A stretch of 59,633 bases of DNA from a virus (IMGVR_UViG_3300025324_000002:1-59633); one strand, 5' to 3'. Shown: positions 284 through 58,406, counted from the first letter of the stretch. Translations and numbers: made by a program. The notes: generated by a model not told the origin, from the letters alone.

Positions 284-339
284 AGCTATTGACCTACCTC
301 TTCAAAGTAGCTACAGATAGCCACCAGGAGGGCAAGGCG

Positions 340-3010: not shown

Positions 3011-3332
3011 CAAGCCCATTCCCGACGAGACCGTTATGGTGTTAAAGCAGCGTGTTGAGTTAATCGCTCAACACAGTACTGCCGAAGAAAATGCGGCGAT
3101 GGCCGATTATCTGGTTCGCAAAGAAGGTGCCGATCCGTCTATCTTGGATCGCGAATTTCAAGATACCTGGACTTACGGCTGGAAGGTCAGGCTGGGTAAG
3201 GATCAGTATGGCGACTTTGTTACCATGACAGACCCTGAGTTTGAATATGCTAGGGGCATTTTGCTCGAACAGGCAAAAATTGTTATAGATCGAATTCAAC
3301 GCGGTCTTGTTAATGATAAAGCCGATGTCTAA
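3003..3332 (+). CDS. hypothetical protein
   Basis: GTG overlaps the upstream stop; alternative ATG at 3036. Confidence 0.45.
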   Translation: MANKPIPDETVMVLKQRVELIAQHSTAEENAAMADYLVRKEGADPSILDREFQDTWTYGWKVRLGKDQYGDFVTMTDPEFEYARGILLEQAKIVIDRIQRGLVNDKADV

Positions 3333-5427: not shown

Positions 5428-7326
5428 GTGCCTCTCAACATCGATCCTCGCGAGTTAGTATCTCTCCAGAAGGGCCGTCCCGCCTTCCGCGGTCGCGGTG
5501 CCCGTGAAAAAAATGAGAAGTTGGAATCTCAGGGCTCCGAAGTCGTCGATCAGATAACGAAAATCCGCGACTGCACGCAATCCAACTACAAGACTACGAC
5601 CCTCTGGCGCGATGCCGGCGTAGAGTCCTACAACTTCATTGAAAATAAACAGTGGGACGAAAAAGACCTTGAATACTTAAAAAAGCAAGGCCGTCCCGCG
5701 ATGACCTTCAACAAAATTCTGCCTCAAGTCCGTTTACTCAGCGGCATGGAGCGCCAGAACCGGGAAGAACTCCGCGTATTCCCGCGCGAGGGCTCCGACA
5801 CTCAAGATGCCGACGTAATGACAGGGCTGGTCAAATACTGTCTTGATGAAAACCTTGCTCCTTGGCAGCTTACCCGCAAGTCGAACGATGTTTATATCTG
5901 TGGCCGAGGTTGGATTAAAACCGACATCAGCTACGATGAGAACATCAACGGTGACTGTACCATCCAACGTCTAAACCCATTTCGGATATTTTGGGATACG
6001 ATGTCAGATGATTGGTCCGGGGCTGACATGCGATGGGTACAAGACTCCCCGTGGATGACCGAGGATGAAGCGAAAGAGCTTTGGCCCGAGTTTGCCGACA
6101 TTATAAAAATAGGCGATTGGCTTTCCGGTAGCACTCCGTTTTTAGTGTCCGGAGTACAGACGGGCGATAAAAACTGGGAGGATAAACTTTTTCTCGATGT
6201 CGAGACTAAACGGGTCCGGTGCCTCGAACATTGGTACAAGATTCGCCAACCTATCCTTTTGGCCGTGAATGCGTCTACCGGCGATATTAGGAACGCCGAG
6301 GATGAAAGTTTCGTAAAAGAATTGGAGGGGTTGAGCGGCCAACAGAGGGGTGCTTTTCGGTTCGTTCGCCAGAACAAGACCATTATTCGCGTTGCCACCG
6401 TGATGAACTGGATAATCGTCCAGGACAAGCCCAGCCCCTTCAAGCATAACAATTTGCCGATCATTCCTTACATCGGTTTACAGTTTATGGGAGAGCCGAA
6501 CGGGTTAGTAGAGTATCTCAAAGATCCTCAAAGGCTCGGTAATAAGTCCATTTCTCAAACCCTGAATCATCTTAACCGATCGGCGAATAGCGGCTGGTTG
6601 AATAAAAGCGGAACGGGAGCGAATCATCAACAGTTGGAACAATTCGGGTCTGCTGCTGGCGTTGTAATTGAATATGAGGAAGTAATGCCGGACAGGATTG
6701 AACCGGCTAGGTTGGATTCCGGTCACATGACACTAGCTCAGGCCAGTGATGGGCTGATTCGGGAAATCTCCCTTTTGAATTCTGAGCTGTCGGGGCTGGG
6801 CACGCAAAAAACCGTATCAGGCAGAGCAATAGAGGCTAGACAGCGCGGCGGCATGACCGGCAACGAAGACTTTTTCGACAACATGCTTTTGGGCGACAAG
6901 ATCCTCGGTTATCAACTTATCTCTAACATCCAACAGACCTACACCCAGGCGAGAATTATCCGCATCCTCGGCGCGCAGAGCGTGAGAAATTCCGATGAGT
7001 TGGGCGCGAAGATGTACATGGAGCTGAAAAACGATACTGATAAACTCTTTCAAGTCGTGGATCGTTGCTTAAAGGCAGAATATGATTATGTGGTTGATCG
7101 CTCGCCGCAGTCCGTGACGATCCGACTGGCTCAGTTTGAAACATTGTTAAAAGCGGCGAAGGATTTTCCAGGGTCTATCCCCCCGGATGTGATCGTGGAC
7201 ATGTCGGACTATCCCGAGAATGCGAAATCGCGAATCAAGCAACATCTACAGAAAATTCAGCAAATGGAAGACATGGCGAAACAGGTCGGTATGGGTAGCG
7301 GGGTTGCTTTACCGCCGGTTCAATAG
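5428..7326 (+). CDS. portal protein
   Basis: 632 aa; size and position before scaffold and capsid; RLNPFRIFWDTMS...DMRWV segment typical of podovirus portals. Confidence 0.8.
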   Translation: MPLNIDPRELVSLQKGRPAFRGRGAREKNEKLESQGSEVVDQITKIRDCTQSNYKTTTLWRDAGVESYNFIENKQWDEKDLEYLKKQGRPAMTFNKILPQVRLLSGMERQNREELRVFPREGSDTQDADVMTGLVKYCLDENLAPWQLTRKSNDVYICGRGWIKTDISYDENINGDCTIQRLNPFRIFWDTMSDDWSGADMRWVQDSPWMTEDEAKELWPEFADIIKIGDWLSGSTPFLVSGVQTGDKNWEDKLFLDVETKRVRCLEHWYKIRQPILLAVNASTGDIRNAEDESFVKELEGLSGQQRGAFRFVRQNKTIIRVATVMNWIIVQDKPSPFKHNNLPIIPYIGLQFMGEPNGLVEYLKDPQRLGNKSISQTLNHLNRSANSGWLNKSGTGANHQQLEQFGSAAGVVIEYEEVMPDRIEPARLDSGHMTLAQASDGLIREISLLNSELSGLGTQKTVSGRAIEARQRGGMTGNEDFFDNMLLGDKILGYQLISNIQQTYTQARIIRILGAQSVRNSDELGAKMYMELKNDTDKLFQVVDRCLKAEYDYVVDRSPQSVTIRLAQFETLLKAAKDFPGSIPPDVIVDMSDYPENAKSRIKQHLQKIQQMEDMAKQVGMGSGVALPPVQ

Positions 7327-10464: not shown

Positions 10465-11058
10465 ATGAAACTGGGTATCGGCATCCCGTATCGCAGCAGC
10501 ATCAAAGTAGTAACGATGATGAGCTTGATTGTCGCGGTGCAGCGGCTCGGCGAAGGCGCGGAGATTTTTTTCTGCGCCAAGCCGGGCGCGTTAGTACACT
10601 GGAACCGTGAAGAGATTTTTGAAATTGCACGGCTGGCGGGATGCACGCACCTTTTGTTTCTCGATACTGACATGAAATTCCCGGCTGTCACGTTTCAAAA
10701 GCTGCTCGACTTGGATAGGGATATTGTCGGCGTGCTTTCATTCAAGCGCGCCTTGCCGCTCATACCTACGGTTCATGTATCAGATGAACAGGCTCCTAAC
10801 GGCTGGCGAAATGCGGCAATAGAGGAAATTCCATCCAGACCGTTCAACGAAATCAGCGGGCGGTCTATCGCGGTCGGAACTGGGATCATGCTTATAAATA
10901 TGGCGCGGGCCGAGCGCGTGGCGCAACCGAGATTCAAAGCAGAGTGGCAGGGACTTGGCGAAGACGTTTATTTTTGCGCTCAAGCCATTGCCGCGGGGTT
11001 AGGGGTTTGGTGTGACCCGACCATACCAATTAAACACATAGGAGACTTTGACTACTAA
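10465..11058 (+). CDS. GT-A fold glycosyltransferase (family-2-like)
   Basis: LFLDTDMKFP (DxD at 10663..10671), GTGIMLI, GEDVYFC, KHIG motifs. Confidence 0.7.
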   Translation: MKLGIGIPYRSSIKVVTMMSLIVAVQRLGEGAEIFFCAKPGALVHWNREEIFEIARLAGCTHLLFLDTDMKFPAVTFQKLLDLDRDIVGVLSFKRALPLIPTVHVSDEQAPNGWRNAAIEEIPSRPFNEISGRSIAVGTGIMLINMARAERVAQPRFKAEWQGLGEDVYFCAQAIAAGLGVWCDPTIPIKHIGDFDY

Positions 11059-33601: not shown

Positions 33602-33668
33602 CCTTGCAAAGGGGTCAGGTTTTCCAGCACTCAGGCCCGGTTGAGAAATCTTCCGGGCCTTTGTGTTT
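33602..33668 (+). ncRNA. candidate small RNA 1 (P1 to H2)
   Basis: About 67 nt between the predicted +1 and the H2 U-tract; no credible ORF. Confidence 0.35.
33633..33668 (+). terminator. hairpin H2 with U-tract
   Basis: aggcccgg-TTGAGAAATCTT-ccgggcct, then ttgtgttt. Confidence 0.55.
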
Positions 33669-33701: not shown

Positions 33702-33811
33702 ACGGTGAAGGAACACACAAAGGGACCTGCGGACCCCCATTTATCTGAATAGCTACGCAGGGCGATGTCAGGTAAGGCCGGGTTGAGAAATCTTCCCGGC
33801 CTTTGTGTTTT
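33702..33811 (+). ncRNA. candidate small RNA 2 (P2 to H3)
   Basis: About 110 nt ending at H3; no credible ORF. Confidence 0.35.
33774..33811 (+). terminator. hairpin H3 with U-tract
   Basis: aaggccggg-TTGAGAAATCTT-cccggcctt, then tgtgtttt; same loop as H2, with a compensatory stem change. Confidence 0.55.
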
Positions 33812-40982: not shown

Positions 40983-42020
40983 ATGGAAGCAGAGGAAAAA
41001 ATCACAGTCGAGGCGCTGTGCGCCGAAATCATGGAGAAGCGCGCCGAACGTTACGCCAGGAAGACGGCGCCCTATGCTAAATCGCAACCCACGTCTTCCG
41101 ACCTTGGAGACTGTCTACGCGAAACTGTTCTCGGTATTACGAACTGGCGAGATAAGCCGAATTTCTCAGTCGAGTTGGTGCAACGGTTTAATCGTGGAGG
41201 CAAGATTGAAGACTTGGCAATCGCCGAGCTTCAGGAGTTAGGCTACCGCGTGCGTGTAGATCGCCGTCCGTTCGAGATGAAAGACAAAAAGGGGCGCGTG
41301 GTGCTTCGCGGCATCATTGACGGGTTTGTTGAGGTCGGGCACCGGCAAATATTTCCGATGGAGTGCAAGAGTCTCAACCCCAACATTTGGGGAAGGATAG
41401 ACAGCCAAGAGGACTTTGATAATTACGCTTTTTTCCGAAAATACCCTCGACAACTCCAGTCGTATCTGCTTGCCGAAAATCTGTATCACGGCTTTTGGTT
41501 GCTTGATGACTGCCTCGGGCATTGGAAGCTGATTCCTTGCCACCTTGACCTTCACCGCGCCGAGAAACTTCTGAGCCACGCCGAGCAGGCCGTTGAACAT
41601 ATCGCCAACGGCACCTTGCCGCCATTCCACTACGATCCTTCTTACTGCCTCAAGTGCTGGGCTTTCAAAAGAGTCTGCACGCCTGATTTTTTCACCGGCG
41701 AAGGCATGAAGCAGGTCAACGACCCGGAATTTGAGGAAAAGCTCGCGCGTCGGGCTGCGCTAGACTTAGCGGCGACTGAATATGACCATCTTGACAAGGA
41801 AATAAAGGAAACGCTCAAGGCCGCTATGAAGCCGATGGATAATTGGATCATTGGTGATTGGCTTGTCTCGGCAACTGAAAAGGAGCGCCGGATGAAGGCG
41901 CAGCCGGCGAAAGAAGCGCACACAAGCAAATACATGGCCTTCGATGTTTCTCGAATCGACGAGGAAGAGGCGATCAAGAAGTCAGACGCCGACTACGAGG
42001 CGCTTGCCGGGAAGGCCTAG
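40983..42020 (+). CDS. PD-(D/E)xK exonuclease, Cas4/RecB-like with a 4-Cys cluster
   Basis: GIIDGFVE...PMECKS (D...ExK); Cys in LGDCLRE plus CLKCWAFKRVC. Confidence 0.7.
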   Translation: MEAEEKITVEALCAEIMEKRAERYARKTAPYAKSQPTSSDLGDCLRETVLGITNWRDKPNFSVELVQRFNRGGKIEDLAIAELQELGYRVRVDRRPFEMKDKKGRVVLRGIIDGFVEVGHRQIFPMECKSLNPNIWGRIDSQEDFDNYAFFRKYPRQLQSYLLAENLYHGFWLLDDCLGHWKLIPCHLDLHRAEKLLSHAEQAVEHIANGTLPPFHYDPSYCLKCWAFKRVCTPDFFTGEGMKQVNDPEFEEKLARRAALDLAATEYDHLDKEIKETLKAAMKPMDNWIIGDWLVSATEKERRMKAQPAKEAHTSKYMAFDVSRIDEEEAIKKSDADYEALAGKA

Positions 42021-42852: not shown

Positions 42853-43728
42853 ATGTCGTATCTTCATATTGCGAATCTTTATCGGCCTGAAGCCCAACGG
42901 ATTCTTGAATTTAAGCAAGTATTCGTCATGGAAAAAATACACGGCACCTCGGCGCATGTGGCTTGGAAGGATAATGCTCTACGGTTTTTCTCCGGTGGAT
43001 CGAAGCATGAAACGTTCGTTGCTCTGTTCGCGGAGGAACAACTGCAGGCCGCATTTAGCGAGATGGCAAATCCCGATGTGACTGTCTACGGCGAAGCCTA
43101 TGGCGGCAAAATTCAGGGAATGAGCAAAGTTTATGGACCCAAGATTAGATTCGTAGCCTTCGAAGTCAAGATAGGCGGTTCTTGGCTTTCTGTCCCACAG
43201 GCTTGCGATATTGCCGTGAATAGGCTCGGTTTGGACTTTGTTTGCTACGATCTGAGCGCAACCGATATTGAATCGCTGAACGAGCACCGAGATGCAAACT
43301 CGGCTCAGGCCATGAAAAACGGCATGGGCGAGCATCCACGCGAAGGTATAGTAATCCGTCCGCCATTTGAGGTCATCCTAAACAACGGCGAAAGACTAAT
43401 TGCTAAATACAAAACCGAAGCATTTCAAGAACGGACACGCGAGCCCAAGATAGGCGAAGATTTGAAAACTCTCACCGATGCCGAGGCGGCAGCGGATGAG
43501 TGGGTCACAAATAACCGGATGGAGCATGTACTAGATTCGTTGTGTTCCGAATCTGTGGATGTTCAGGATATTACCGCCACGGGTGCAGTGATTAAGCGAA
43601 TGTATCAAGACATAGAGCGTGAGGGCGCGGGAGAACTTGAGTTTTCAAAAATGCTTTCGCGGGCTATCGGACAAAAAACGGCCAAAATGTTTAAGCAGAG
43701 ATTGCAGACGCGGATTAATGAGGGGTAG
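42853..43728 (+). CDS. RNA ligase (Rnl2 / PF09414-like nucleotidyltransferase)
   Basis: Motif I EKIHGTS (Lys at 42934..42936), GEAYGGKIQG, FVAFEV, REGIVIRP, AKYK. Confidence 0.7.
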   Translation: MSYLHIANLYRPEAQRILEFKQVFVMEKIHGTSAHVAWKDNALRFFSGGSKHETFVALFAEEQLQAAFSEMANPDVTVYGEAYGGKIQGMSKVYGPKIRFVAFEVKIGGSWLSVPQACDIAVNRLGLDFVCYDLSATDIESLNEHRDANSAQAMKNGMGEHPREGIVIRPPFEVILNNGERLIAKYKTEAFQERTREPKIGEDLKTLTDAEAAADEWVTNNRMEHVLDSLCSESVDVQDITATGAVIKRMYQDIEREGAGELEFSKMLSRAIGQKTAKMFKQRLQTRINEG

Positions 43729-43731
43729 GGG

Positions 43732-44946
43732 ATGACGCCATCTAACGCCTGGATGGGCTGCTACGAGATGGGCTGGCAAGGGCTAATTGTGCCAGAGGCA
43801 TTCGCTCATCCTGCCAAGGTCTCCCGCGGACTGATCCGCCGCATCTACAAGCACGCCTTTGACGAGGGCTGGCTGAAACACGGCGATTCGGTGGTTGATC
43901 CATTCGGCGGCATCGCCGGCACAGCCTTAGACGCCATGTGGAACCGCTGTCACTGGATAGGTGTGGAGTTGGAACCCCGCTTTGTGGCGCTAGCCGAGCA
44001 GAACATCGCTCTTTGGCAACGCAAGTTCGGGAGCAATGCGGGCTGGGGCCGAGGGATAATCATTCAGGGGGACTCCCGGCAGTTGGTGAGCGTGATAGCG
44101 GGCGCGGATTTGATTTGTTCTTCGCCGCCGTTCCATGACTCGATGAGCAACAAACCAAGTGCGCAGATTCTAGCTGGTAGCGGCGGGCGCATGGGTGAAA
44201 GTTGCAAATCTAACGATATCTACGGCACCACCGAAGGCCAGCTAGGCCGCATGAAAGAAGGCACCCCGCCGAGCGTGGAGATGATTGTCGGGAGCCCGCC
44301 GTTTACCGACAGCATGAACACGCAAGACGTTAAATTTTGGCACAAACACATAACCGATATCGGGCGTGATCCCGATACACCAGGGGCGAGAAGTTTGATT
44401 GGCGATTACGGCTCCACTCCCGGCCAGCTCGGCGCCATGCCCGAGGGCAAGTTTGACGCGGTGATTAGCTCGCCGCCGTTCGAGCAAAGCAATCTCACGG
44501 TTGACAAAAATTTTATGGCCCAGGTTGAGCGAGACAAACGTAATGGGTCCCGTCTGCAGCCAGGACTCGGCACGTACGGAAAAGAGGCTGGCAACATCGG
44601 CAACCAATCCGGCTCCACTTTCTGGACCGCCGCCCGCGAGATTGTCGCCCAATGCCACGCGATATTGCGACCGGGCGGTCACTCGATTTGGGTTTGTAAG
44701 GATTTCGTTAGAAAGGGCCAGCGCGTGCCCTTCAGCGACCAATGGCAGGCGCTATGTGAGGCGGAGGGCTTTCGGCTGGTCTGCCGCCATCGCGCAATGC
44801 TCGTGGCGCATCACGGGGAGCATGGTCAGTTATTCGGTGGGAGCGAACAACTCAAAACCGAGCGAAAGAGTTTTTTTCGCAGGCTTGCCGAGAAAAAAGG
44901 TAGCCCTGCGATAGACTGGGAAGACGTGCTCTGCTTGGAGCGATGA
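43732..44946 (+). CDS. DNA N4-C/N6-A methyltransferase with triplicated SPPF motif IV
   Basis: AHPAK...VVDPFGGIAGT (motifs X and I), then SPPF at 44122, 44293 and 44470; LRPGG after the third. Confidence 0.8.
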   Translation: MTPSNAWMGCYEMGWQGLIVPEAFAHPAKVSRGLIRRIYKHAFDEGWLKHGDSVVDPFGGIAGTALDAMWNRCHWIGVELEPRFVALAEQNIALWQRKFGSNAGWGRGIIIQGDSRQLVSVIAGADLICSSPPFHDSMSNKPSAQILAGSGGRMGESCKSNDIYGTTEGQLGRMKEGTPPSVEMIVGSPPFTDSMNTQDVKFWHKHITDIGRDPDTPGARSLIGDYGSTPGQLGAMPEGKFDAVISSPPFEQSNLTVDKNFMAQVERDKRNGSRLQPGLGTYGKEAGNIGNQSGSTFWTAAREIVAQCHAILRPGGHSIWVCKDFVRKGQRVPFSDQWQALCEAEGFRLVCRHRAMLVAHHGEHGQLFGGSEQLKTERKSFFRRLAEKKGSPAIDWEDVLCLER

Positions 44947-45410: not shown

Positions 45411-45746
45411 ATGCAGCAATCCAAGCCGGGCATAAAGCTGAATCCGCTAATAGCCTCCAAGACAACGCCGATATTTGAGGCGGACCCGAAGCGATACCAG
45501 CGAATTTGCCGCTGGGTTTGGACGCAGCAAAAACGGGGCTGGCCGGACGAAGCGATAGCGGAGGCGCTCAGTCTGGCCGGCACGAACATTCACAGGGCCG
45601 ATAGCTGGTGGAAATATCTGACGGCATTGTTACCGAAAGGGAAAGGGCGCGCGGCGGAAATTGAATCAACTCGCCATAAATCGGAAGTGGGAGAGATCGC
45701 GGGCGAGTTTGTTGAGTTTCTAAAGCAAAAGAGAGGGGCAAAATGA
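45411..45746 (+). CDS. hypothetical protein
   Basis: 111 aa; ATGA overlap with the initiator gene. Confidence 0.45.
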   Translation: MQQSKPGIKLNPLIASKTTPIFEADPKRYQRICRWVWTQQKRGWPDEAIAEALSLAGTNIHRADSWWKYLTALLPKGKGRAAEIESTRHKSEVGEIAGEFVEFLKQKRGAK

Positions 45747-46264
45747 AAGAACGGATTAACCCATATAACATGTTCGTCGGCTCATTTATTCCGAACTGGC
45801 TATTAGAGCAGCCTGAACTAAGCTCGAACGCGAAACTTGTCTATGGCCGGCTTTGCCAGTTTGCCGGGAAAGATGGGCGGGCATTCCCGACTATCGAGAC
45901 TCTTAGCGTGAAGACGGGCCTTTCTAAGAGTACAGCCGAAAGAGCCCTGGCTGAACTTAAAGACGCCAAGCTTATTGACGTTGAAAGACACGGGTTGAAT
46001 CAGCCTAATAGCTATTTTTTTTTACGCCATAAGTGGATGGATGGGAAACCGGATACGTCACCGGTGACGTATCAAGATACTTCAACGTTGACGGATCAGG
46101 ATACGTCACCGGTGACGTACATAAGAGAATCAGAAGAAGAGAATCAGTTAAGAGATCCCGCAAGGCGGGCGCCTTCGGCGGGTTCTTTAAAGAAATCAGG
46201 ATCGGGAATGACACCGGAAGCGGCCAAGGCGCACCTTAAACAACTGCGCGAAGGACTGAATTGA
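45743..46264 (+). CDS. replication initiator, winged-HTH (lambda O / DnaD-like)
   Basis: LSSNAKLVYGRLCQFAGKDGRAFPTIETLSVKTGLSKSTAERALAELKDAKLI; carries internal iterons. Confidence 0.65.
   Translation: MKERINPYNMFVGSFIPNWLLEQPELSSNAKLVYGRLCQFAGKDGRAFPTIETLSVKTGLSKSTAERALAELKDAKLIDVERHGLNQPNSYFFLRHKWMDGKPDTSPVTYQDTSTLTDQDTSPVTYIRESEEENQLRDPARRAPSAGSLKKSGSGMTPEAAKAHLKQLREGLN
46051..46119. repeat. putative origin iterons inside the initiator gene
   Basis: GGATACGTCACCGGTGACGTA at 46051..46071 and 46099..46119; GATAC+TTCAACGTTGA between them; GATAC phased every 24 bp. Confidence 0.55.
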
Positions 46265-48081: not shown

Positions 48082-48558
48082 ATGAAAAAACATGGTCACA
48101 GGGGTTCTAATTACACATCTCCAACGTGGTTTTCTTGGCGAGCCATGAATGAAAGATGCCACACGCCCGGTACAGCGGATTATCCTCGTTATGGTGGACG
48201 CGGAATTACGGTGTGCGAACGCTGGCGGCAATCCTTTGGGAATTTCCTTACCGACATGGGCGAACGTCCAGAAGGCACAACGTTGGAGCGTGAAGAAGTA
48301 AACGGGAATTATGAATCGCAAAACTGCCGATGGGCGACAAGCATGGAGCAGGGTGCCAACAAACGGAGCAACGTATATTTAACATTCAACGATAAAACAC
48401 AGCACATAAGAGCATGGGCTAGGGAACTAGGGATTGATCGAACAACTATTTCGTGGCGTTTAAGACACGGGCAAACCACGGAAGAAGCTCTTACTGGGCC
48501 TATTAAATCAAGAGCGGAACGAGGGATTTTAGGATTGAAGGCTAGAGGGCTACTTTAA
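48082..48558 (+). CDS. conserved phage DNA-binding/endonuclease-like protein (YGGRGI family)
   Basis: YPRYGGRGITVCERWRQSFGNFLTDMGERPEG...NGNYESQNCRWAT plus a C-terminal HTH-like region. Confidence 0.5.
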   Translation: MKKHGHRGSNYTSPTWFSWRAMNERCHTPGTADYPRYGGRGITVCERWRQSFGNFLTDMGERPEGTTLEREEVNGNYESQNCRWATSMEQGANKRSNVYLTFNDKTQHIRAWARELGIDRTTISWRLRHGQTTEEALTGPIKSRAERGILGLKARGLL

Positions 48559-48905
48559 TGCCAATGGATAGAAAGCTATATCCTCCTGACTGGGAAGAAA
48601 TTTCCCGTCATATTCGGTTTGATATCGCAAAGGGTCGTTGCCAGTGCGAGGGCGAATGCGGACTGCATCGTACCACGCCCGGCCCGCGCCGCTGTATCGA
48701 GAAGAACGGCCATGAAGCAAAATGGGCGAGGGGTAAGATTGTCCTGACCACGGCGCATCTTTGCGAATGCGATCCGCTGTGCGGGAACGAGGCGCACTTA
48801 AAAGCTATGTGCCAACGTTGCCACCTTCGAGTAGATCAGGACCTGCACGCGAAGAATTCCAAGGCGACACGGCGCAGCAGGATGGCCGTGGGGGAGTTGT
48901 TTTAA
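48558..48905 (+). CDS. HNH endonuclease
   Basis: CQCEGEC...TAHLCECDPLCGNEAHLKAMCQRCHLRVD. Confidence 0.6.
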   Translation: MPMDRKLYPPDWEEISRHIRFDIAKGRCQCEGECGLHRTTPGPRRCIEKNGHEAKWARGKIVLTTAHLCECDPLCGNEAHLKAMCQRCHLRVDQDLHAKNSKATRRSRMAVGELF

Positions 48906-49402
48906 TGATTTTCATCGGCATAGACCCTGGGCAAACCGGAGCGGTGGCCTGGATACAGTCCGGAGAAATAGTCGGCAATTTTGGCGTTATAGATGCGCCG
49001 ATTTTGACCGTAGAAAAAAACAAAAGCATACGGCACGAAATGGACCGCGTAGGTATGGCTAGAATCGTCGAGGATATTAAAAGCTTGGTGGCTCCGATGA
49101 GTCGGATTGTTGCCGCCGTGGAGCGCGTGCACAGCATGCCCGAGCAAGGCGTGGCTTCATCGTTCAGTTTTGGCATGGGCTATGGAATTTGGCTTGGTAT
49201 CCTTGCGGCTTTCGAAATTCCCGTGGACCTCGTTCACCCTACGCGCTGGAAAAAGGTCATGATGGATGGCATGGGGAAAGAGAAACAGGCGTCCATGGTG
49301 CGGGCGAAGGAACTATTTCCGACTGCCGAGTTGTCCCTAAAAAAGCATCATGGGCGAGCCGATGCGCTTTTGATCGCAGAATACAGGCGCCGATTAGGAT
49401 GA
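48905..49402 (+). CDS. RuvC-like Holliday junction resolvase
   Basis: TAATG-coupled start; MIFIGIDPGQTGAVAW ... HGRADALLIAEY. Confidence 0.8.
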   Translation: MIFIGIDPGQTGAVAWIQSGEIVGNFGVIDAPILTVEKNKSIRHEMDRVGMARIVEDIKSLVAPMSRIVAAVERVHSMPEQGVASSFSFGMGYGIWLGILAAFEIPVDLVHPTRWKKVMMDGMGKEKQASMVRAKELFPTAELSLKKHHGRADALLIAEYRRRLG

Positions 49403-53833: not shown

Positions 53834-54069
53834 TCTTTGGGAGTATCGGAGTCCAAAAGGAAATACGATGTTTGCTCGGTAGCAGCGAGGAGATCGTTGA
53901 TTTGCTGCAAGACCTTTTCGGGATAGTTCGGCTGCACGATATTAGGCATGAGATTATCGGCAACCACCTTGCCAAGGATGGGAATTACCAATTTAAGAGC
54001 GTTGCGCATCGCTTCGTTTCGTGTTTCTAACTTATAAATTTGCTCATCTATGGCGGTTGCTAGTTTCAT
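53830..54069 (-). CDS. hypothetical protein (last gene of the leftward operon)
   Basis: AAGGAGAATGACCATG initiation region, identical to that at 56676; its stop shares TTAA with the convergent gene. Confidence 0.5.
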   Translation of the reverse strand: MKLATAIDEQIYKLETRNEAMRNALKLVIPILGKVVADNLMPNIVQPNYPEKVLQQINDLLAATEQTSYFLLDSDTPKD

Positions 54070-54112
54070 GGTCATTCTCCTTTAACTCACGCTCCACTTA
54101 TAGTTAAAATAG

Positions 54113-54274
54113 TCACTGTCGTTGGGGTGCCATTTTATCCTCAGTACAGGCTTTGCACCACACTGCTATCGGCGACTGTTTTCGTTGACACCTGCCGTTA
54201 TGTCCCACCGCGCACTGCGGGTTTACGCAGACACAGCGTAGCAGGCCATATTTGTTTTTATTTTTGCGATTCAT
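54113..54274 (-). CDS. small zinc-ribbon protein
   Basis: 53 aa; AAGGAG RBS; CVC..C...C...CKAC. Confidence 0.45.
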   Translation of the reverse strand: MNRKNKNKYGLLRCVCVNPQCAVGHNGRCQRKQSPIAVWCKACTEDKMAPQRQ

Positions 54275-54276
54275 GA

Positions 54277-54729
54277 TTAGGACTCCTTGGCTTGTGCGAT
54301 CGCGGCGCGGGCCTGTCCTTGTGCGCAATCACAAGGTATTACGTGGCAATATTTATCATGCACGGGCATAGGTGACAGAAGCCGTTTCAGCGCCTCCAGC
54401 ATCGCCGCGTTGTCGCGGGCGAGCTTGGCATTGTCGGCCTTAAGGCTTATATTCTCGGCAGTAAGTACGTCTAGTTTTGCCATCGCCATCCCCGGCGAAA
54501 TCTCCCAGGCATGCATCTCCAATTCTGCTGTTAGTCGTTCGTTGTCGCGGGCGAGCTTGGCGTGGGAGTTGAATCGGTTTACGATATCATCAGCCGTCCA
54601 GTCACTGCTAATATTACATGCTACGGTTATCTCTCTTGCGTTGGTCACGTCATGCCAGTGGAGATCGATTCGAGATCCGTTTTGAACTTTAAAAATAGGA
54701 CCATCTATATAGGTGTGTTTCGTTGTCAT
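54277..54729 (-). CDS. hypothetical coiled-coil protein
   Basis: 150 aa from MTTKHTY; GGGAGGAGAGG RBS; the C-terminus lies in the 35-bp repeat. Confidence 0.5.
   Translation of the reverse strand: MTTKHTYIDGPIFKVQNGSRIDLHWHDVTNAREITVACNISSDWTADDIVNRFNSHAKLARDNERLTAELEMHAWEISPGMAMAKLDVLTAENISLKADNAKLARDNAAMLEALKRLLSPMPVHDKYCHVIPCDCAQGQARAAIAQAKES
54298..54332 (-). repeat. 35-bp junction repeat, copy 1
   Basis: GATCGYGGCGCGGGCCTGTCCTTGTGCGCAATCAC; 34/35 identical to 54755..54789. Confidence 0.9.
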
Positions 54730-54754
54730 GTCATTCCTCTCCTCCCGCTTGTTT

Positions 54755-54789
54755 GATCGTGGCGCGGGCCTGTCCTTGTGCGCAATCAC
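54755..54789 (-). repeat. 35-bp junction repeat, copy 2 (relic C-terminal coding)
   Basis: Lies between the stop at 54803 and the start at 54729. Confidence 0.9.
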
Positions 54790-54802
54790 TGTGTCCTCCG
54801 TT

Positions 54803-54952
54803 TCAATCCGTCAAATCCTCGTCATCCTCGCCGTCCCCGTCATCATCGTCCGGCTCGAGCCGCTCGAGCCGATACAGCCGCGCTTGCTCGGCGGCAATCT
54901 CGGCCTCGGTGTACAGGCCGTATTTGCCGTTTATGGTGTAGGGGCGTGTCAT
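54803..54952 (-). CDS. small acidic protein
   Basis: 49 aa, below the cutoff; GGAGAAACGATAATG RBS; DDDDGDGEDDED tail. Confidence 0.4.
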   Translation of the reverse strand: MTRPYTINGKYGLYTEAEIAAEQARLYRLERLEPDDDDGDGEDDEDLTD

Positions 54953-55062: not shown

Positions 55063-55473
55063 TTACGAAACGCTCCATTTGTAATTAAAATAATCGCTCT
55101 GCAGGTCGCTCCGGTCGTCGTGGTTAGGAAATGCACGGAGCAGAACGGTTTCTAACTTTTTCGCTGCACTCCAATGGGTTTGATTGCGAATCTTGGCCGG
55201 CACGTTGTCGGGCATATCGGCAAAGGATTGCCCGCGGTAGTCAACGCCGTTGTAGAAATATTCGGAATCATGGCCCATATAGCCGGGGATTTTGACATCC
55301 ACAGCCTGCGCCATGCTGTAGTTAGGCGCCGTCACGCTGACACCCTTGATGCCGAGCCTCTTGAATAGCTCGCGGCAGAGCTTGGCTTGCTCCTTGCGCC
55401 GGATAGAGCGGTCGGTTGACATGACAGGAACCTTGTCCAGGTTCACGCTAAAAATTTGAGTTAGAGTTTCCAT
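55063..55473 (-). CDS. conserved phage protein
   Basis: 136 aa from METLTQ; GGGAGGATAACATG. Confidence 0.5.
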   Translation of the reverse strand: METLTQIFSVNLDKVPVMSTDRSIRRKEQAKLCRELFKRLGIKGVSVTAPNYSMAQAVDVKIPGYMGHDSEYFYNGVDYRGQSFADMPDNVPAKIRNQTHWSAAKKLETVLLRAFPNHDDRSDLQSDYFNYKWSVS

Positions 55474-55516
55474 GTTATCCTCCCGCCCGGCAGCCACGCC
55501 GGGCTTTGTTTTGGGT

Positions 55517-56044: not shown

Positions 56045-56155
56045 TGTTTTTTTCCTTTCCTACGCACCTGCCACGGCGCGCTCGTTTTGGCCCGTCGTGG
56101 GGCGATATCGTTAGCCGGACATGGAGTTGAATTTTTTATCTAACCGTTTTCCTTC

Positions 56156-56183
56156 CCTCCATGTTCTGCGCCAGTCCGTTCAC
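56156..56183 (-). repeat. junction motif B, copy 1
   Basis: Minus-sense GTGAACGGACTGGCGCAGAACATGGAGG; the ATG here opens only an 8-codon ORF. Confidence 0.85.
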
Positions 56184-56192
56184 ATCCGCCTG

Positions 56193-56450
56193 CTATGACC
56201 CATAGCGCGCTATTCGCGCTTCTGTTCTCTCTCGCCGCAATTGCGTTTTAATTTCATCAGGAGTTAATCCGCGCTGTCTTATGCGGTCTAGTGCCGCTTT
56301 GAATTCGCTCGCCGTTGGTTGCCACTGAGGGTGGCAGCTAGTCTGGATCATTTTTCTTTCTAAACACGTCCGGCATTTTGGTACTTCCGTCTCTATGGCT
56401 TTTAACGCATGATATTCATGCGCTTCTTGGTTAAAAGATTGATATGACAT
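56193..56450 (-). CDS. hypothetical protein
   Basis: 85 aa; preceded by motif A. Confidence 0.5.
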   Translation of the reverse strand: MSYQSFNQEAHEYHALKAIETEVPKCRTCLERKMIQTSCHPQWQPTASEFKAALDRIRQRGLTPDEIKTQLRRERTEARIARYGS

Positions 56451-56457
56451 TTTAATT

Positions 56458-56484
56458 CCCTCCAGGTTGCAGAGTTAGGGGTTA
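56458..56484 (-). repeat. junction motif A, copy 1
   Basis: Minus-sense TAACCCCTAACTCTGCAACCTGGAGGG. Confidence 0.85.
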
Positions 56485-56676
56485 CATCAATCGGCGCCAT
56501 TCTTCGCCAGCCTTGAGAAACTCGTCATGACCTGCGATCTTTGCTCCTTCTGGCTGGTAGCGTTTATCGCCGGCCTGCTTGCCAAAGGCTGCTTTTAGAT
56601 TTGCAGACCATGCGTGATCAGCGGCTAAAAATCGCTGGTACGCCTCGGTCACTAGCTCCTTTTTAGTTTTCTCCAT
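56482..56676 (-). CDS. hypothetical protein
   Basis: 64 aa from MEKTKKEL; AAGGAGAATGACCATG. Confidence 0.5.
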   Translation of the reverse strand: MEKTKKELVTEAYQRFLAADHAWSANLKAAFGKQAGDKRYQPEGAKIAGHDEFLKAGEEWRRLM

Positions 56677-56696
56677 GGTCATTCTCCTTGTCTTAG

Positions 56697-56714
56697 TTCC
56701 CTCACGTCCGGGGC
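56697..56714 (-). repeat. junction motif C, copy 1
   Basis: Minus-sense GCCCCGGACGTGAGGGAA; encodes the C-terminus ..PRT* of 56702..56848. Confidence 0.85.
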
Positions 56715-56848
56715 TCTGACGGGCATTTAGGGCATGTACATTTATCGCAATGCCAGGTTGAGCCATGCTCGATGATCGGGTCTCCGCGTACTAGATAAGT
56801 CCGGCACACGGGACAATTTTCGTTACTCGTCAGTCTTAAAGGTGTCAT
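56702..56848 (-). CDS. micro zinc-ribbon protein
   Basis: 48 aa, below the cutoff; CPVC...CDKCTCPKC. Confidence 0.45.
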   Translation of the reverse strand: MTPLRLTSNENCPVCRTYLVRGDPIIEHGSTWHCDKCTCPKCPSEPRT

Positions 56849-56864
56849 GGTTTTTCCTGCTCAT

Positions 56865-56882
56865 TTCCCTCACGTCCGGGGC
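56865..56882 (-). repeat. junction motif C, copy 2 (non-coding here)
   Basis: Identical 18-mer, upstream of the start at 56848. Confidence 0.85.
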
Positions 56883-56908
56883 CTGCTGCCAGGCCCGAGG
56901 GTCGGGGA

Positions 56909-57079
56909 CTAGATGGGCCTTACCGCGGCGTCGGCAGCTTCCCCAGTCCAGCGATTACCTGAACTGTGAGCACCAGCCTCGACGCAGCGCTCTAATTCTC
57001 TTTTGTGCGCGTTACAGGCGTTGCCGTGTTTTGCTGTTGTCCACTTTGCCTCGTTGTCGCACCAGTTGCATGTTTTCAT
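56909..57079 (-). CDS. micro zinc-ribbon protein
   Basis: 56 aa; CNWC...C..H; CTGGAGGAACGACCATG RBS. Confidence 0.45.
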   Translation of the reverse strand: MKTCNWCDNEAKWTTAKHGNACNAHKRELERCVEAGAHSSGNRWTGEAADAAVRPI

Positions 57080-57086
57080 GGTCGTT

Positions 57087-57112
57087 CCTCCAGGGTTCGG
57101 AGTTAGGGGTTA
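57087..57112 (-). repeat. junction motif A, copy 2
   Basis: Minus-sense TAACCCCTAACTCCGAACCCTGGAGG. Confidence 0.85.
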
Positions 57113-57259
57113 GGTCGCTTTTAGGGCAGTCTTAGCTTTTAGCATTTGCCGCCAAATAATTTCAGGGACCTTTGTCCCGCCGAGATCTTCGACCACGCCG
57201 ACAAATTCGATCAATACGCGTCTGAGCTTTTCTATTTCTATCGTGAGCTCGTTTTCCAT
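57110..57259 (-). CDS. micro helical protein
   Basis: 49 aa; TAGGAGTATAAAATG; its stop lies in motif A. Confidence 0.4.
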   Translation of the reverse strand: MENELTIEIEKLRRVLIEFVGVVEDLGGTKVPEIIWRQMLKAKTALKAT

Positions 57260-57268
57260 TTTATACTC

Positions 57269-57409
57269 CTATTTTTTTGACTGCTGTTTGCATTCTTTAC
57301 ACTTGATTGTAATTGTAACTAGATCGGGGGTTACGGATACAACACTATGATCTGTTATCGCGCCGTCGCATTTCTCAGAGTGGCAACGGCAGTAAAAATG
57401 GTCAAACAT
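57269..57409 (-). CDS. micro zinc-ribbon protein
   Basis: 46 aa from MFDHFYCRCH...CKEC; the start lies in motif B. Confidence 0.45.
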   Translation of the reverse strand: MFDHFYCRCHSEKCDGAITDHSVVSVTPDLVTITIKCKECKQQSKK

Positions 57410-57413
57410 TTGT

Positions 57414-57441
57414 CCTCCAGGTTTTGCGCCAGTCCGTTCAC
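57414..57441 (-). repeat. junction motif B, copy 2
   Basis: Minus-sense GTGAACGGACTGGCGCAAAACCTGGAGG. Confidence 0.85.
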
Positions 57442-57473
57442 GTCTGCCCCCAGCCGGGGGCAGGGTCAGGGGA

Positions 57474-57641
57474 CTAGGCTTTTCGCTTGCCGCCGGCCAC
57501 GGTGGCGAACTCATATCCGCTAGGCCGGGCAGGCGGAGTTATGATCTCTACCGCTGGGTCCAGGCAAACCCAGTGCCGATCAGATAGCGGCACTGGGGGA
57601 TTGTCGTTGTTTGCCTGTTTGCAAACTGGACATATTTTCAT
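57474..57641 (-). CDS. micro zinc-ribbon-like protein
   Basis: 55 aa; MKICPVCKQ...; AAGGAGGATGACAATG. Confidence 0.45.
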   Translation of the reverse strand: MKICPVCKQANNDNPPVPLSDRHWVCLDPAVEIITPPARPSGYEFATVAGGKRKA

Positions 57642-57647
57642 TGTCAT

Positions 57648-57674
57648 CCTCCTTGGTTGCGGAGTTAGGGGTTA
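57648..57674 (-). repeat. junction motif A, copy 3
   Basis: Minus-sense TAACCCCTAACTCCGCAACCAAGGAGG. Confidence 0.85.
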
Positions 57675-57806
57675 ATTCGCTCGCCCGTCTTTCTTTGCTG
57701 ATTTTAAACAGGCAGCGCAAACAGGTTCCGGCGTACCGCCGTGAAAAACGAAATTTTCTCCGTTACAGTTTTTGCCGCATTCTGAACACTGTTCGTATTT
57801 TTTCAT
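57672..57806 (-). CDS. micro zinc-ribbon protein
   Basis: 44 aa; CSEC...CAAC; AAGGAGGATAACATG. Confidence 0.45.
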   Translation of the reverse strand: MKKYEQCSECGKNCNGENFVFHGGTPEPVCAACLKSAKKDGRAN

Positions 57807-57811
57807 GTTAT

Positions 57812-57832
57812 CCTCCTTGGTTGCTGAGTTAA
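57812..57832 (-). repeat. junction motif A, partial copy 4
   Basis: Minus-sense TTAACTCAGCAACCAAGGAGG. Confidence 0.7.
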
Positions 57833-57861
57833 TCTTTAGCTAATTCAATACTCAAAAAAAA

Positions 57862-58038
57862 CTACGCTGCGTGTTCGGTCAAAACTTTATCAACTGCGAG
57901 CTGTACCACGAGGGGGATTTCTTTGTTGCCACGCTCGTAATTGCTCAGTGTGACCGGGTGCACTTCTATAAGCTTTCCGAGCTGCGCTTGTGTGAGCCCG
58001 GCTTGCTCGCGTCTGGTTTTCAACTCGATTGCGTTCAT
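57862..58038 (-). CDS. XRE-family HTH regulator
   Basis: 58 aa; LKTRREQAGLTQAQLGKLIEVHPVTLSNYERG; ATGA overlap with the upstream gene. Confidence 0.7.
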   Translation of the reverse strand: MNAIELKTRREQAGLTQAQLGKLIEVHPVTLSNYERGNKEIPLVVQLAVDKVLTEHAA

Positions 58039-58232
58039 GCGTGGCAATCCCTTGCGCAGTCTTGGCACACGTTAAACGTGCCGTAAGCTGTTTTGACGAC
58101 TTGGATATATGCAGGTGTGAACTGTCGGCCATATTGATGACCTGGATTGCCGTTTGGTGTGCGCTTAGCTGATTCCATGTGTGCGATGTGCTCGCACTGG
58201 CATTGCGGAGAATCTATTTTTTTTGCGTTCAT
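58035..58232 (-). CDS. small Cys/His-rich protein (first gene of the leftward operon)
   Basis: 65 aa; CQCEH...CQDCARDCH. Confidence 0.5.
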   Translation of the reverse strand: MNAKKIDSPQCQCEHIAHMESAKRTPNGNPGHQYGRQFTPAYIQVVKTAYGTFNVCQDCARDCHA

Positions 58233-58284
58233 AATTTTCTTGACCCTCTACCCTATTAAGGTGAGAAAATCGTGCCAAGCAATC

Positions 58285-58299
58285 GTCAACCAAGTTGAC
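58285..58299. promoter_or_regulatory. dyad GTCAAC-CAA-GTTGAC upstream of the leftward operon (candidate operator)
   Basis: Perfect 6-3-6 palindrome; minus-sense TTGACT-18 nt-CACTAT just upstream. Confidence 0.4.
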
Positions 58300-58406
58300 A
58301 TAGTGAGTGAATTCATGCAGTTGAGTCAAAAACTATTTTAGCGTGAGGCTAAAAATACATATTTAGTCGTATGCTAAATTGGGCGCCTGGTGTGCATATA
58401 GTTTAC

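Follow-up and report, generated by a model that had tools for sequence, protein, structure and literature searches.

Repeated gene junctions in an early micro-gene operon of an aquifer phage as possible portable cassettes

Junction repeats of the operon

The DNA described here (IMGVR_UViG_3300025324_000002:1-59633; 59,633 nucleotides, referred to in its whole length as the window) comes from a phage, labelled W, whose minus strand carries an operon of small genes named g0-g13. The junctions between these genes contain several families of repeated sequence, designated motifs A to E. We propose, with a confidence a little above even, that the repeats are portable junction cassettes of a hyperplastic early operon, in which they serve both as expression signals and as short-homology exchange points. 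The repeats are restricted to the junctions, motif A is conserved between phages above the neutral level, W and its relatives differ cassette-wise, and scars of former genes lie beside the junctions. The connector, and not the gene, appears to be the conserved unit: its letters stay the same while synonymous sites reach saturation and other genes take the place of its neighbours.

Between the gene for a Cro-like helix-turn-helix (HTH) protein and g9 (1.8 kb), 22 repeated 12-mers were found, as against 0.14 in shuffled sequences. The junctions make up 31% of this stretch and contain 132 of the 165 bases that lie under repeated 12-mers. In a listing of the 20 largest direct-repeat families of the whole genome (59.5 kb), both motif A and motif B appear. 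The first-pass annotation of the window had placed motifs A, B and C on the minus strand between unrelated genes; every copy was recovered, far above chance, and no similarity among the micro-proteins g1-g8 was detected above composition-preserving shuffles (best z-score 2.5).

Motif A

Motif A begins with the TAA stop codon of the upstream gene, continues through two to four tandem heptamers (NAACYCY) and ends in a Shine-Dalgarno (SD) sequence, with the general build TAACCCC TAACTCC G(C)AACC.. GGAGG. The heptamers read TAACCCC TAACTCC GAACCCT, and this tract, which is almost G-free, is predicted to be unstructured; the motif is not palindromic. The 13-mer TAACCCCTAACTC is identical in all full copies of W, and between its end and the ATG there are 20, 20 and 21 nt, although this stretch contains indels. 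The likeness of copies A1 and A2 extends into ATGAAAAYATG. The sequence TAACCCCTAACTCYG occurs without mismatch at 57660-57674, 57098-57112 and 56470-56484 (minus strand). With up to two mismatches allowed, four matches were observed (the three exact copies and a site with two mismatches at 10994-11008) against 0.11 in shuffles, and no shuffle attained four. Every copy of motif A has minus-strand orientation and belongs to the early operon, at non-structural genes. The short form A0 is without the first heptamer of the full motif. In A3 the whole translation-initiation region (TIR) also lies within a 9-bp stem, GAUUGAUGU/AUAUCAAUC.

Immediately before the TAA of A1 there is a 12-mer, GGCGAGCGAATT (57674-57685), which occurs again within g8 (56302-56313). 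Its presence inside g8, together with the unusual length of that gene (85 aa), hints at a fusion across a lost junction.

Relatives of the operon

Exact-pattern scans for A and B covered IMG/VR, JGI metagenomes and GTDB genomes. Nearly all matches were single chance ones, many of them within cyanobacterial or eukaryote-like heptamer repeats, and GGAGG follows in none but L008, one of 78 pattern matches in IMG/VR. Here the motif is followed by AACCCTGGAGG and ATG, and the locus is a genuine relative of the operon. A longer locus from the same contig, L156, spans the operon, and L152, a groundwater contig of 631 nt, covers the first junction only. The HTH protein of W shares 72% amino acid identity with that of L156 and 79% with that of L152. 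Between W and L156 this gene has 70.6% nucleotide identity, with just 47.5% at third codon positions.

L156 contains one exact copy of motif A, TAACCCCTAACTCCG[AACTCCG]AACCCTGGAGGA, which is identical to A2 at 27 of 27 positions besides an extra heptamer. The two copies form an island of 27-29 nt with 93-100% identity, the flanks being unrelated on both sides. Since such an island persists between unrelated flanks in phages whose synonymous sites are nearly saturated, motif A cannot be neutral and is either under purifying selection or repeatedly re-spread. Its conservation points first to a selected expression function.

Common to W and L156 are the leader (86% identity over 135 nt), the HTH gene, A0, a diverged and an exact copy of motif A, a 16-nt TIR, a distant homologue of g12 (E 9e-6) and converging plus-strand genes. 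The remainder of the operon differs, with g0 replaced by g0', g1-g11 by gX, gY and gZ, and g12b and g13 by gR. The exact copy of A precedes the g12 homologue in L156, and g2, g5 and g8 in W. A0 is kept in W, L152 and L156, each time ahead of a different, unrelated gene, and the similarity between W and L152 is bounded exactly by the ATG of the HTH gene and the ATGAAA of the next gene. Because A and A0 precede unrelated genes across these phages, the motif moves independently of any gene family. The genes g0 (65 aa) and g0' are likewise unrelated and occupy the same insertion point, both being bracketed by ATGAACGC[A/C], which forms the leader end and the start of the HTH gene (6748-6756 and 7001-7009 in L156). 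In W, the 9-nt sequence ATGAACGCA closes the leader (58224-58232) and again opens the HTH gene (58030-58038). In L151, a strain variant, g0 contains a TAG (window position 58193).

The first-pass annotation had suggested that the motifs are boundary sequences at which single genes are swapped, and that the genes between them should vary cassette-wise in metagenomic phages. For A and A0 this expectation is borne out in one to two relatives, where motif positions coincide with gene-content breakpoints. This coincidence of position is what was observed, and crossovers inside the motifs are inferred. Motifs B and C were found in neither L156 nor L152 and behave as recent duplicates or relics rather than as linkers common to several phages.

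Further sequences were compared with the operon. The W region and 25 kb of the genome gave no DNA match among approximately 50,000 GenBank phages, and an 18-mer from the leader gave chance matches only (L153-L155). In L100 and L101, whose terminase is about 80% identical to that of W at the amino acid level, no homologue of the operon was present in the DNA fetched, and so the operon appears to lie in a variable region of the genome. The motifs were not found in the g9 relatives L098, L099 and L140-L150. One of these, L140, with a g9 homologue of 64% amino acid identity, possesses its own junction consensus, TGAATGAAGGAG, before several genes (720-2430). Three others, L142, L144 and L147, are strains from the same aquifer samples with an identical g9 homologue behind differing genes, the breakpoints coinciding exactly with start codons (ATGGAAAC.., ATGAAACTCCCTGACA|).

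Two other sets of matches should be mentioned. Contigs L102, L111 and L137 (Crocosphaera watsonii and related contigs) contain tandem heptamers, ..CCCCTAACTCCGAACCCCTAACTCCGAA.., which match A2 over 22 nt; this is probably a low-complexity coincidence, though it recalls the way in which motif A is put together from heptamers. L052, a phage contig, has TAACCCCTAACTCTG at 308-322 (minus strand) as the stop and leader of one gene and, about 2.9 kb away at 3169-3192 (plus strand), GCAACCAAGGGGGATAACATGA before another gene, 23/24 identical to the A0 TIR (E 0.002). These copies may reflect chance or a wider spread of connectors, and are treated as unproven because the contig is AT-rich and otherwise unrelated.

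Motifs B to E and gene relics

The claim that each motif spans a stop codon, a spacer and the next SD sequence holds for motif A and fails for B and C. In B the inner TGA is not the stop of the upstream gene, the true stops being TAG codons 36 nt (B1) and 12 nt (B2) upstream, and motif C does not contain the SD sequence of the next gene. It had been correctly noted that one copy of B serves a true gene (start at 57409) and the other only a stub of eight codons, after which a non-coding spacer of about 90 nt extends to g9. Equally, one copy of C encodes the end of g6 and the other is non-coding. The C1 and C2 cores (56865-56882 and 56697-56714) are identical at 18/18 positions, or 21/23 when extended, with 0.05 expected by chance (0.01 for motif B, from shuffles). 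The gene g6 is thus flanked by direct repeats, and B and C have the common core GAYGTGA.

Motifs D and E, the GC hairpins behind the D copies and the 16-nt TIR repeat were not among the features of the first-pass annotation. Motif D occurs at two junctions with the pattern CTAGTCCCC(T)GACCCT. A 1-nt indel separates D1 from D2, so that the motif is conserved as nucleotides and not as protein. Each copy is followed by a perfect GC hairpin and then by the core of B or C. These hairpins, J3 and J6, occupy an equivalent position and have different stem sequences in which the pairing is kept; the occurrence of two hairpins of unlike sequence at an equivalent place argues for a structural role. The whole g2/g3 junction folds at -34.7 kcal/mol (z -3.1), and in the predicted fold GGACUGG of B1 pairs with CUAGUCC of D1 around the inner hairpin. 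At the g5/g6 junction the inner hairpin is present, and the total energy is indistinguishable from that of shuffles. No Rfam family was detected in 53.5-59.6 kb.

Two other roles were considered for these junctions and rejected. J3 and J6 lack a U-tract and are absent from the list of terminator-like structures, whereas hairpins with T-runs are used as terminators elsewhere in W; they are thus not canonical terminators. Read-through or recoding of TAG, an idea raised by the TGA that follows the TAG in frame in J3 and J6, is contradicted by the 1-nt indel between D1 and D2, and is also opposed by the absence of any encoded tRNA and by the intact long open reading frames (ORFs).

The remaining repeats lie further downstream. 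Motif E is a direct repeat of 61 nt, 82% identical (93% over a 43-nt core), which brackets g12. E1 reads as a decayed g12-like end (..DCAQGQARATIKQAGGEE*), in frame after the TGA of g11, and the g12 homologue of L156 ends like E2. A further relic precedes g13. Its peptide is identical to the end of g10 (55063-55098), the eight nucleotide differences are all synonymous, and there is no in-frame start codon; the whole resembles a stump left when a g10-like gene was replaced.

At the g9/g10 junction (55471-55504, minus strand) there is another GC hairpin, GCCCGGC-GTGGCT-GCCGGGC. After it comes GGAGGATAACATG, whose 13 nt recur in the TIR of g1 (57804-57816).

Table 1. Positions of the junction motifs, hairpins, relics and genes of the W operon
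Feature	Position	Strand	Description
Operon leader / regulatory region	58224..58358	-	86% identical to L156; ends in ATGAACGCA
Cro-like HTH gene	57862..58038	-	58 aa; conserved anchor of the operon; Pfam HTH_31/HTH_3
Micro-genes g1-g8	56193..57806	-	Eight genes, 44-85 aa
g1	57672-57806	-	
g2	57474-57641	-	
g3	57269-57409	-	
g4	57110-57259	-	
g5	56909-57079	-	
g6	56702-56848	-	
g7	56482-56676	-	
g8	56193-56450	-	
A0	57812..57831	-	Short form TAACTCAGCAACCAAGGAGG; serves g1
A1	57648..57674	-	TAA stop of g1, invariant 13-mer TAACCCCTAACTC, SD AAGGAGG; serves g2
A2	57087..57112	-	TAA stop of g4, 13-mer, SD; serves g5
A3	56459..56484	-	TAA stop of g7, 13-mer, SD; serves g8
B1	57414..57448	-	35 nt; ends in the SD of g3 (start 57409)
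B2	56156..56190	-	31/35 identical to B1 (89%); SD without a gene behind it
Stub ORF	56136..56162	-	8 codons, MEGRKTVR*; starts inside B2
C1	56860..56882	-	Non-coding; between the J6 hairpin and the g6 start
C2	56692..56714	-	Codes for the end of g6 (..EPRT, TGA within the motif)
D1	57462..57477	-	CTAGTCCCCTGACCCT; takes in the TAG stop of g2; chance expectation 0.00
D2	56898..56912	-	CTAGTCCCCGACCCT; takes in the TAG stop of g5; chance expectation 0.00
J3 hairpin	57444..57463	-	Junction g2/g3; perfect 8 bp, CTGCCCCC-GGCT-GGGGGCAG
J6 hairpin	56879..56896	-	Junction g5/g6; perfect 7 bp, GGGCCTG-GCAG-CAGGCCC
E1	54747..54807	-	Upstream of g12; relic of a g12-like 3' end and junction
E2	54290..54350	-	Native 3' end of g12 and SD of the next gene
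g10-like 3'-end relic	54082..54117	-	Non-coding; before g13; SDYFNYKWSVS*
16-nt TIR of g7	56674..56689	-	AAGGAGAATGACCATG; recurs unchanged at g13 (54067-54082) and at L156 gene gZ

RNA structure and expression signals

In all four full copies of motif A, the L156 copy included, CUCC can pair with the GGAG of the SD sequence in a hairpin of 4-5 bp (-4.4 to -6.2 kcal/mol). Pairing between the SD sequence and the anti-SD was calculated at -9 to -13 kcal/mol, using as a model an E. coli-type 16S 3' end that may not be that of the host. In a context of 76 nt, A1 and A2 are no stabler than shuffles (z 0.28 and -1.3), and A0 is without the hairpin. SD sequestration, which had been put forward as a second explanation of motif A, is a weak and unproven proposition.

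A consensus scan found no sigma-70-like promoter on the minus strand at 56100-57860, and by eye A, B and C are without -35 and -10 hexamers. Neither an RNA polymerase nor a sigma factor was found among the proteins scanned, many genes remaining unannotated. An integrase was also lacking among the proteins scanned in a genome scan that was not exhaustive.

A model of portable junction cassettes

In our model the operon is built of cassettes, each consisting of a junction and a micro-gene, behind the Cro-like HTH gene. Motif A would be a selected, portable translation-initiation leader that travels with, or receives, unrelated genes. Perhaps it acts as an enhancer or standby tract. It could also be a coupling device, the weak CUCC:GGAG hairpin being melted by the ribosome as it terminates at TAA; with UAA in its A site, such a ribosome would cover roughly the 13-mer, with CUCC at the leading edge. 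The junctions composed of D, hairpin and GACGTGA would represent a second, structured type with a putative role in mRNA processing, stability or attenuation. Motifs B, C, D and E are probably lineage-specific, made up of junction duplicates and of 3' ends remaining from genes since replaced, and B2, C1, E1 and the g10 stump appear to be the debris of insertion, deletion or replacement beside junctions. Short-homology recombination at the junctions or beside them would add, remove and exchange genes; it is the most economical mechanism for the cassette-wise differences because the junctions are direct repeats, those of the A type are shared with relatives, and a RecE/Cas4-like exonuclease and a Holliday-junction resolvase are encoded.

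A number of points weigh against this model. Function alone can explain the conservation of motif A, and breakpoints at gene boundaries are also expected from illegitimate recombination followed by selection (PMC3029335). The regular order A, D with B or C, x, A, D with C, together with the similar gene sizes, fits an old tandem duplication. The roles in translation and RNA processing are predictions from sequence. Comparative support is thin, consisting of one relative (L156) beyond the first junction and one fragment (L152) at it, and none of B, C, D and E turned up in either of them or in any collection scanned. In L142, L144 and L147 the replacement of genes breaks at start codons without a long shared linker. 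Approximately 12 metagenome contigs of W are colinear, with no deletion or duplication between the repeats. These aquifer copies of W are identical or near-identical, every one colinear with the window and with its few mismatches confined to contig ends, and hence active exchange was not observed. A gapped scaffold, L089, is probably chimeric.

Alternative explanations

The motifs may be purely regulatory, with no role in exchange. Motif A would then be the site of a trans-acting factor (protein, sRNA or rRNA segment) or a coupling switch of a micro-gene regulon, comparable to the start-associated sequences (SAS) of mycobacteriophages, and breakpoints would fall there only because viable mosaic joints lie at gene boundaries. 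We regard this as possible, at perhaps one chance in a few. It accommodates the fact that what is invariant in A is the 13-mer ahead of the SD sequence rather than the SD sequence itself, the fixed TAA stop type and distances to CUCC and ATG, the preservation of A at 27/27 positions across phages with near-saturated synonymous sites, and the weak SD-masking hairpin in all four full copies; SAS follow a like logic and are also tied to genes of different families (PMC3203893). It leaves unexplained the dead copy B2, the relics E1 and g10 end, and the genes lying within direct repeats. Furthermore, no antisense partner of the 13-mer exists in the W genome, and the hairpin is, as stated above, no stabler in context than shuffles and missing from A0.

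A bolder proposal, which we put forward tentatively and consider improbable, combines both functions in motif A. The stop codon and heptamer array would form a switch, read by the terminating ribosome or by a factor, that ties each micro-gene to its upstream neighbour. The same sequence would be the attachment site of an integrase-free trade in Zn-ribbon micro-genes among groundwater phages, via small circles or short-homology crossovers.

Slightly more doubtful still is an origin by ancient tandem duplication. The unit copied would have been some 0.6 kb long, with three genes in the arrangement A, Zn-ribbon gene, D-hairpin junction, Cys-rich gene, helical gene; its coding parts would have diverged until no likeness was left, with the junctions kept. 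The occurrence of A at junctions 1, 4 and 7 (spacing 562 and 628 nt), with D-type junctions right after A1 and A2, agrees with such an event, as do the matching gene sizes (55/56, 46/48 and 49/64 aa), the resemblance of corresponding genes in MKxCxxC starts, Cys-richness and ME-helical character, and the continuation of the A1/A2 likeness past the start codon. However, the three corresponding protein pairs are not above shuffles, falling outside the 15 best pairs listed (z <0.92), while the junction cores are 100% identical. Moreover, A stands before the g12 homologue in L156 and A0 before three unrelated genes.

It is very unlikely that an RNA polymerase or sigma factor, phage-specific or of an alternative kind, uses motif A (and possibly B and C) as its promoter, in the manner of T7-type promoters, with short transcripts that begin just upstream of the SD sequence. 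A highly conserved asymmetric element of 13-27 nt, with a single orientation and a constant spacing to gene starts, and shared by related phages, would suit a promoter, but the proteins scanned include no such polymerase or sigma factor (many genes being unannotated), the junctions have no sigma-70-like hexamers, and the 3-4 copies are confined to one operon that already has a conserved leader/promoter region. Chance similarity of strong ribosome-binding sites can be dismissed almost entirely: AAGGAGG and ATGAAA are expected in any optimised TIR and L140 has its own short junction consensus, but the conserved cores lie outside the SD sequence and the shuffles (0.00-0.11 expected per pattern, besides the excess of repeated 12-mers) refute it.

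Comparison with known systems

Among described elements the closest to the W junctions, by analogy, appear to be the promoter-early stem-loops (PeSLs) of T4-type phages (Arbiol et al. 2010, PMC2839356; Comeau et al. 2014, PMC4122927). PeSLs extend from a stop codon to the SD sequence or start, precede ORFans in hyperplastic regions, and mediate indels and the formation of mini-circles (PMC2839356). The W junctions are also reiterated composite intergenic cassettes, motif A running from TAA to the SD sequence before an ORFan. A-type junctions mark both ends of the gene-content differences among W, L156 and L152 (1-2 relatives), and some cassettes have GC-rich stem-loops, which in W are found at J3 and J6. 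In contrast, PeSLs are defined by a strong sigma-70-type promoter and a terminator stem-loop. A promoter was not detected in W, motif A has no stem-loop, and J3 and J6 have no U-tract; T4-type genomes carry about 50 copies, as opposed to a few in one W operon. Since the defining promoter was not found and a terminator function is unproven, the W junctions are not PeSLs, yet they may work alike in genome plasticity.

The SAS and extended SAS (ESAS) of Cluster K mycobacteriophages are suspected of a role in translation (Pope et al. 2011, PMC3203893), and the function of SAS is still not known (PMC3203893, PMC12699233). Like motif A, an SAS is an asymmetric repeat of one orientation near the starts of non-structural genes, sometimes with an upstream stop, and stays conserved among relatives although the gene families attached to it differ. 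The two differ in sequence and placement: the SAS, GGGATAGGAGCCC (up to two mismatches), contains the SD sequence and lies 3-7 bp from the start, whereas the W 13-mer is 5' of the SD sequence, 20-21 nt before the ATG. There are 11-19 SAS copies per genome as against 3-4 copies of A in W. ESAS consist of 17-bp inverted repeats, thought by the authors to bind protein, whereas the W stems vary but still pair.

The primary papers on the boundary sequences of lambdoid phages are reportedly those of Susskind and Botstein and of Clark et al. In PMC3029335 these sequences appear within a homologous-recombination model of mosaicism as proposed crossover points at module joints; they are described there as absent at most phage mosaic joints, for which illegitimate recombination with selection is the usual alternative. 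The absence of long shared linkers in the g9 relatives matches that literature (PMC3029335). Both the island common to A2 and L156 and the A0 of three phages are, in the manner of boundary sequences, shared sequence located exactly at the joints of unrelated segments. Motif A differs in being also reiterated within one genome and in carrying translation signals.

RNase III sites between the early genes of T7 and the hairpins of the REP (repetitive extragenic palindromic) type in bacterial operons set mRNA processing or stability. J3 and J6 resemble them as GC-rich stem-loops without a U-tract between stop and SD sequence in a polycistronic unit; no relation to them was found in sequence or in Rfam, J3 and J6 are two copies only, and their processing role is a prediction. 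Other known devices are translational coupling through SD masking and leader enhancers that are rich in C and A and poor in G, for example the epsilon sequence of T7 gene 10, UUAACUUUA. Motif A likewise has UAA at a fixed distance before CUCC and a G-poor, CA-rich tract 5' of the SD sequence, and A0 contains UUAACUC. In W, however, the hairpin has only 4-5 bp, and a role of this kind would be a prediction. Integron cassettes depend on a site-specific integrase and an imperfectly palindromic attC; motif A is not palindromic, and the non-exhaustive scan of the W proteins yielded no integrase.

The early regions of phages are rich in tiny genes of fast turnover, many of which are suspected of acting in host takeover or anti-defence. 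Except in a few model groups, little is understood of how such genes are gained and brought to expression. Portable junction cassettes in W would extend the idea behind PeSLs, boundary sequences and SAS to a promoter-less connector at the level of translation in an unrelated phage lineage, and would overturn nothing known. The 13-mer is a testable candidate for an expression element or crossover point, and possibly a search handle for cassette-borne micro-genes.

Genome and operon layout

The W genome, from an uncultivated groundwater phage, is complete and was assembled as a circle with a 99-nt terminal overlap. It is about 59.5 kb in length with 52% GC, encodes a P22-type portal, and carries no tRNA genes. 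The operon, read on the minus strand, consists of the leader, g0, the Cro-like HTH gene, g1-g8 and g9-g13, and extends down to 53830. CxxC pairs are present in several of the micro-proteins g1-g8. None of these has a Pfam or PHROG match above the curated cut-off, g8 having the sole sub-threshold Pfam match, and no homologue of g8 was found among 5.8 billion proteins.

The leader contains two palindromes, TTAGCCTCACGCTAA at 58338-58352 and GTCAACTTGGTTGAC at 58285-58299. In its L156 counterpart (6622-6756) the second of these reads GTAAACTTGGTTTAC. Because both arms are altered together, this palindrome probably serves as an operator or RNA stem.

Genes of the recombination type are located on the plus strand in the order Cas4-domain/RecE-like exonuclease (40983-42020), HNH endonuclease (48082-48558) and Holliday-junction resolvase (48761-49402). 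W also encodes an RNA ligase (42853-43728) and a DNA methylase (43732-44946). Within an HTH_36 gene (45743-46264) there are three 21-nt palindromic repeats, GGATACGTCACCGGTGACGTA, with a spacing of 24 nt (46051-46119, plus strand), which look like origin iterons inside a replication-initiator gene. Two terminator-like hairpins with T-runs, each of 36 nt and 94% identical to one another, lie at 33633-33668 and 33775-33810 (plus strand); their two differences exchange one base pair of the stem (CCCGG/CCGGG versus CCGGG/CCCGG).

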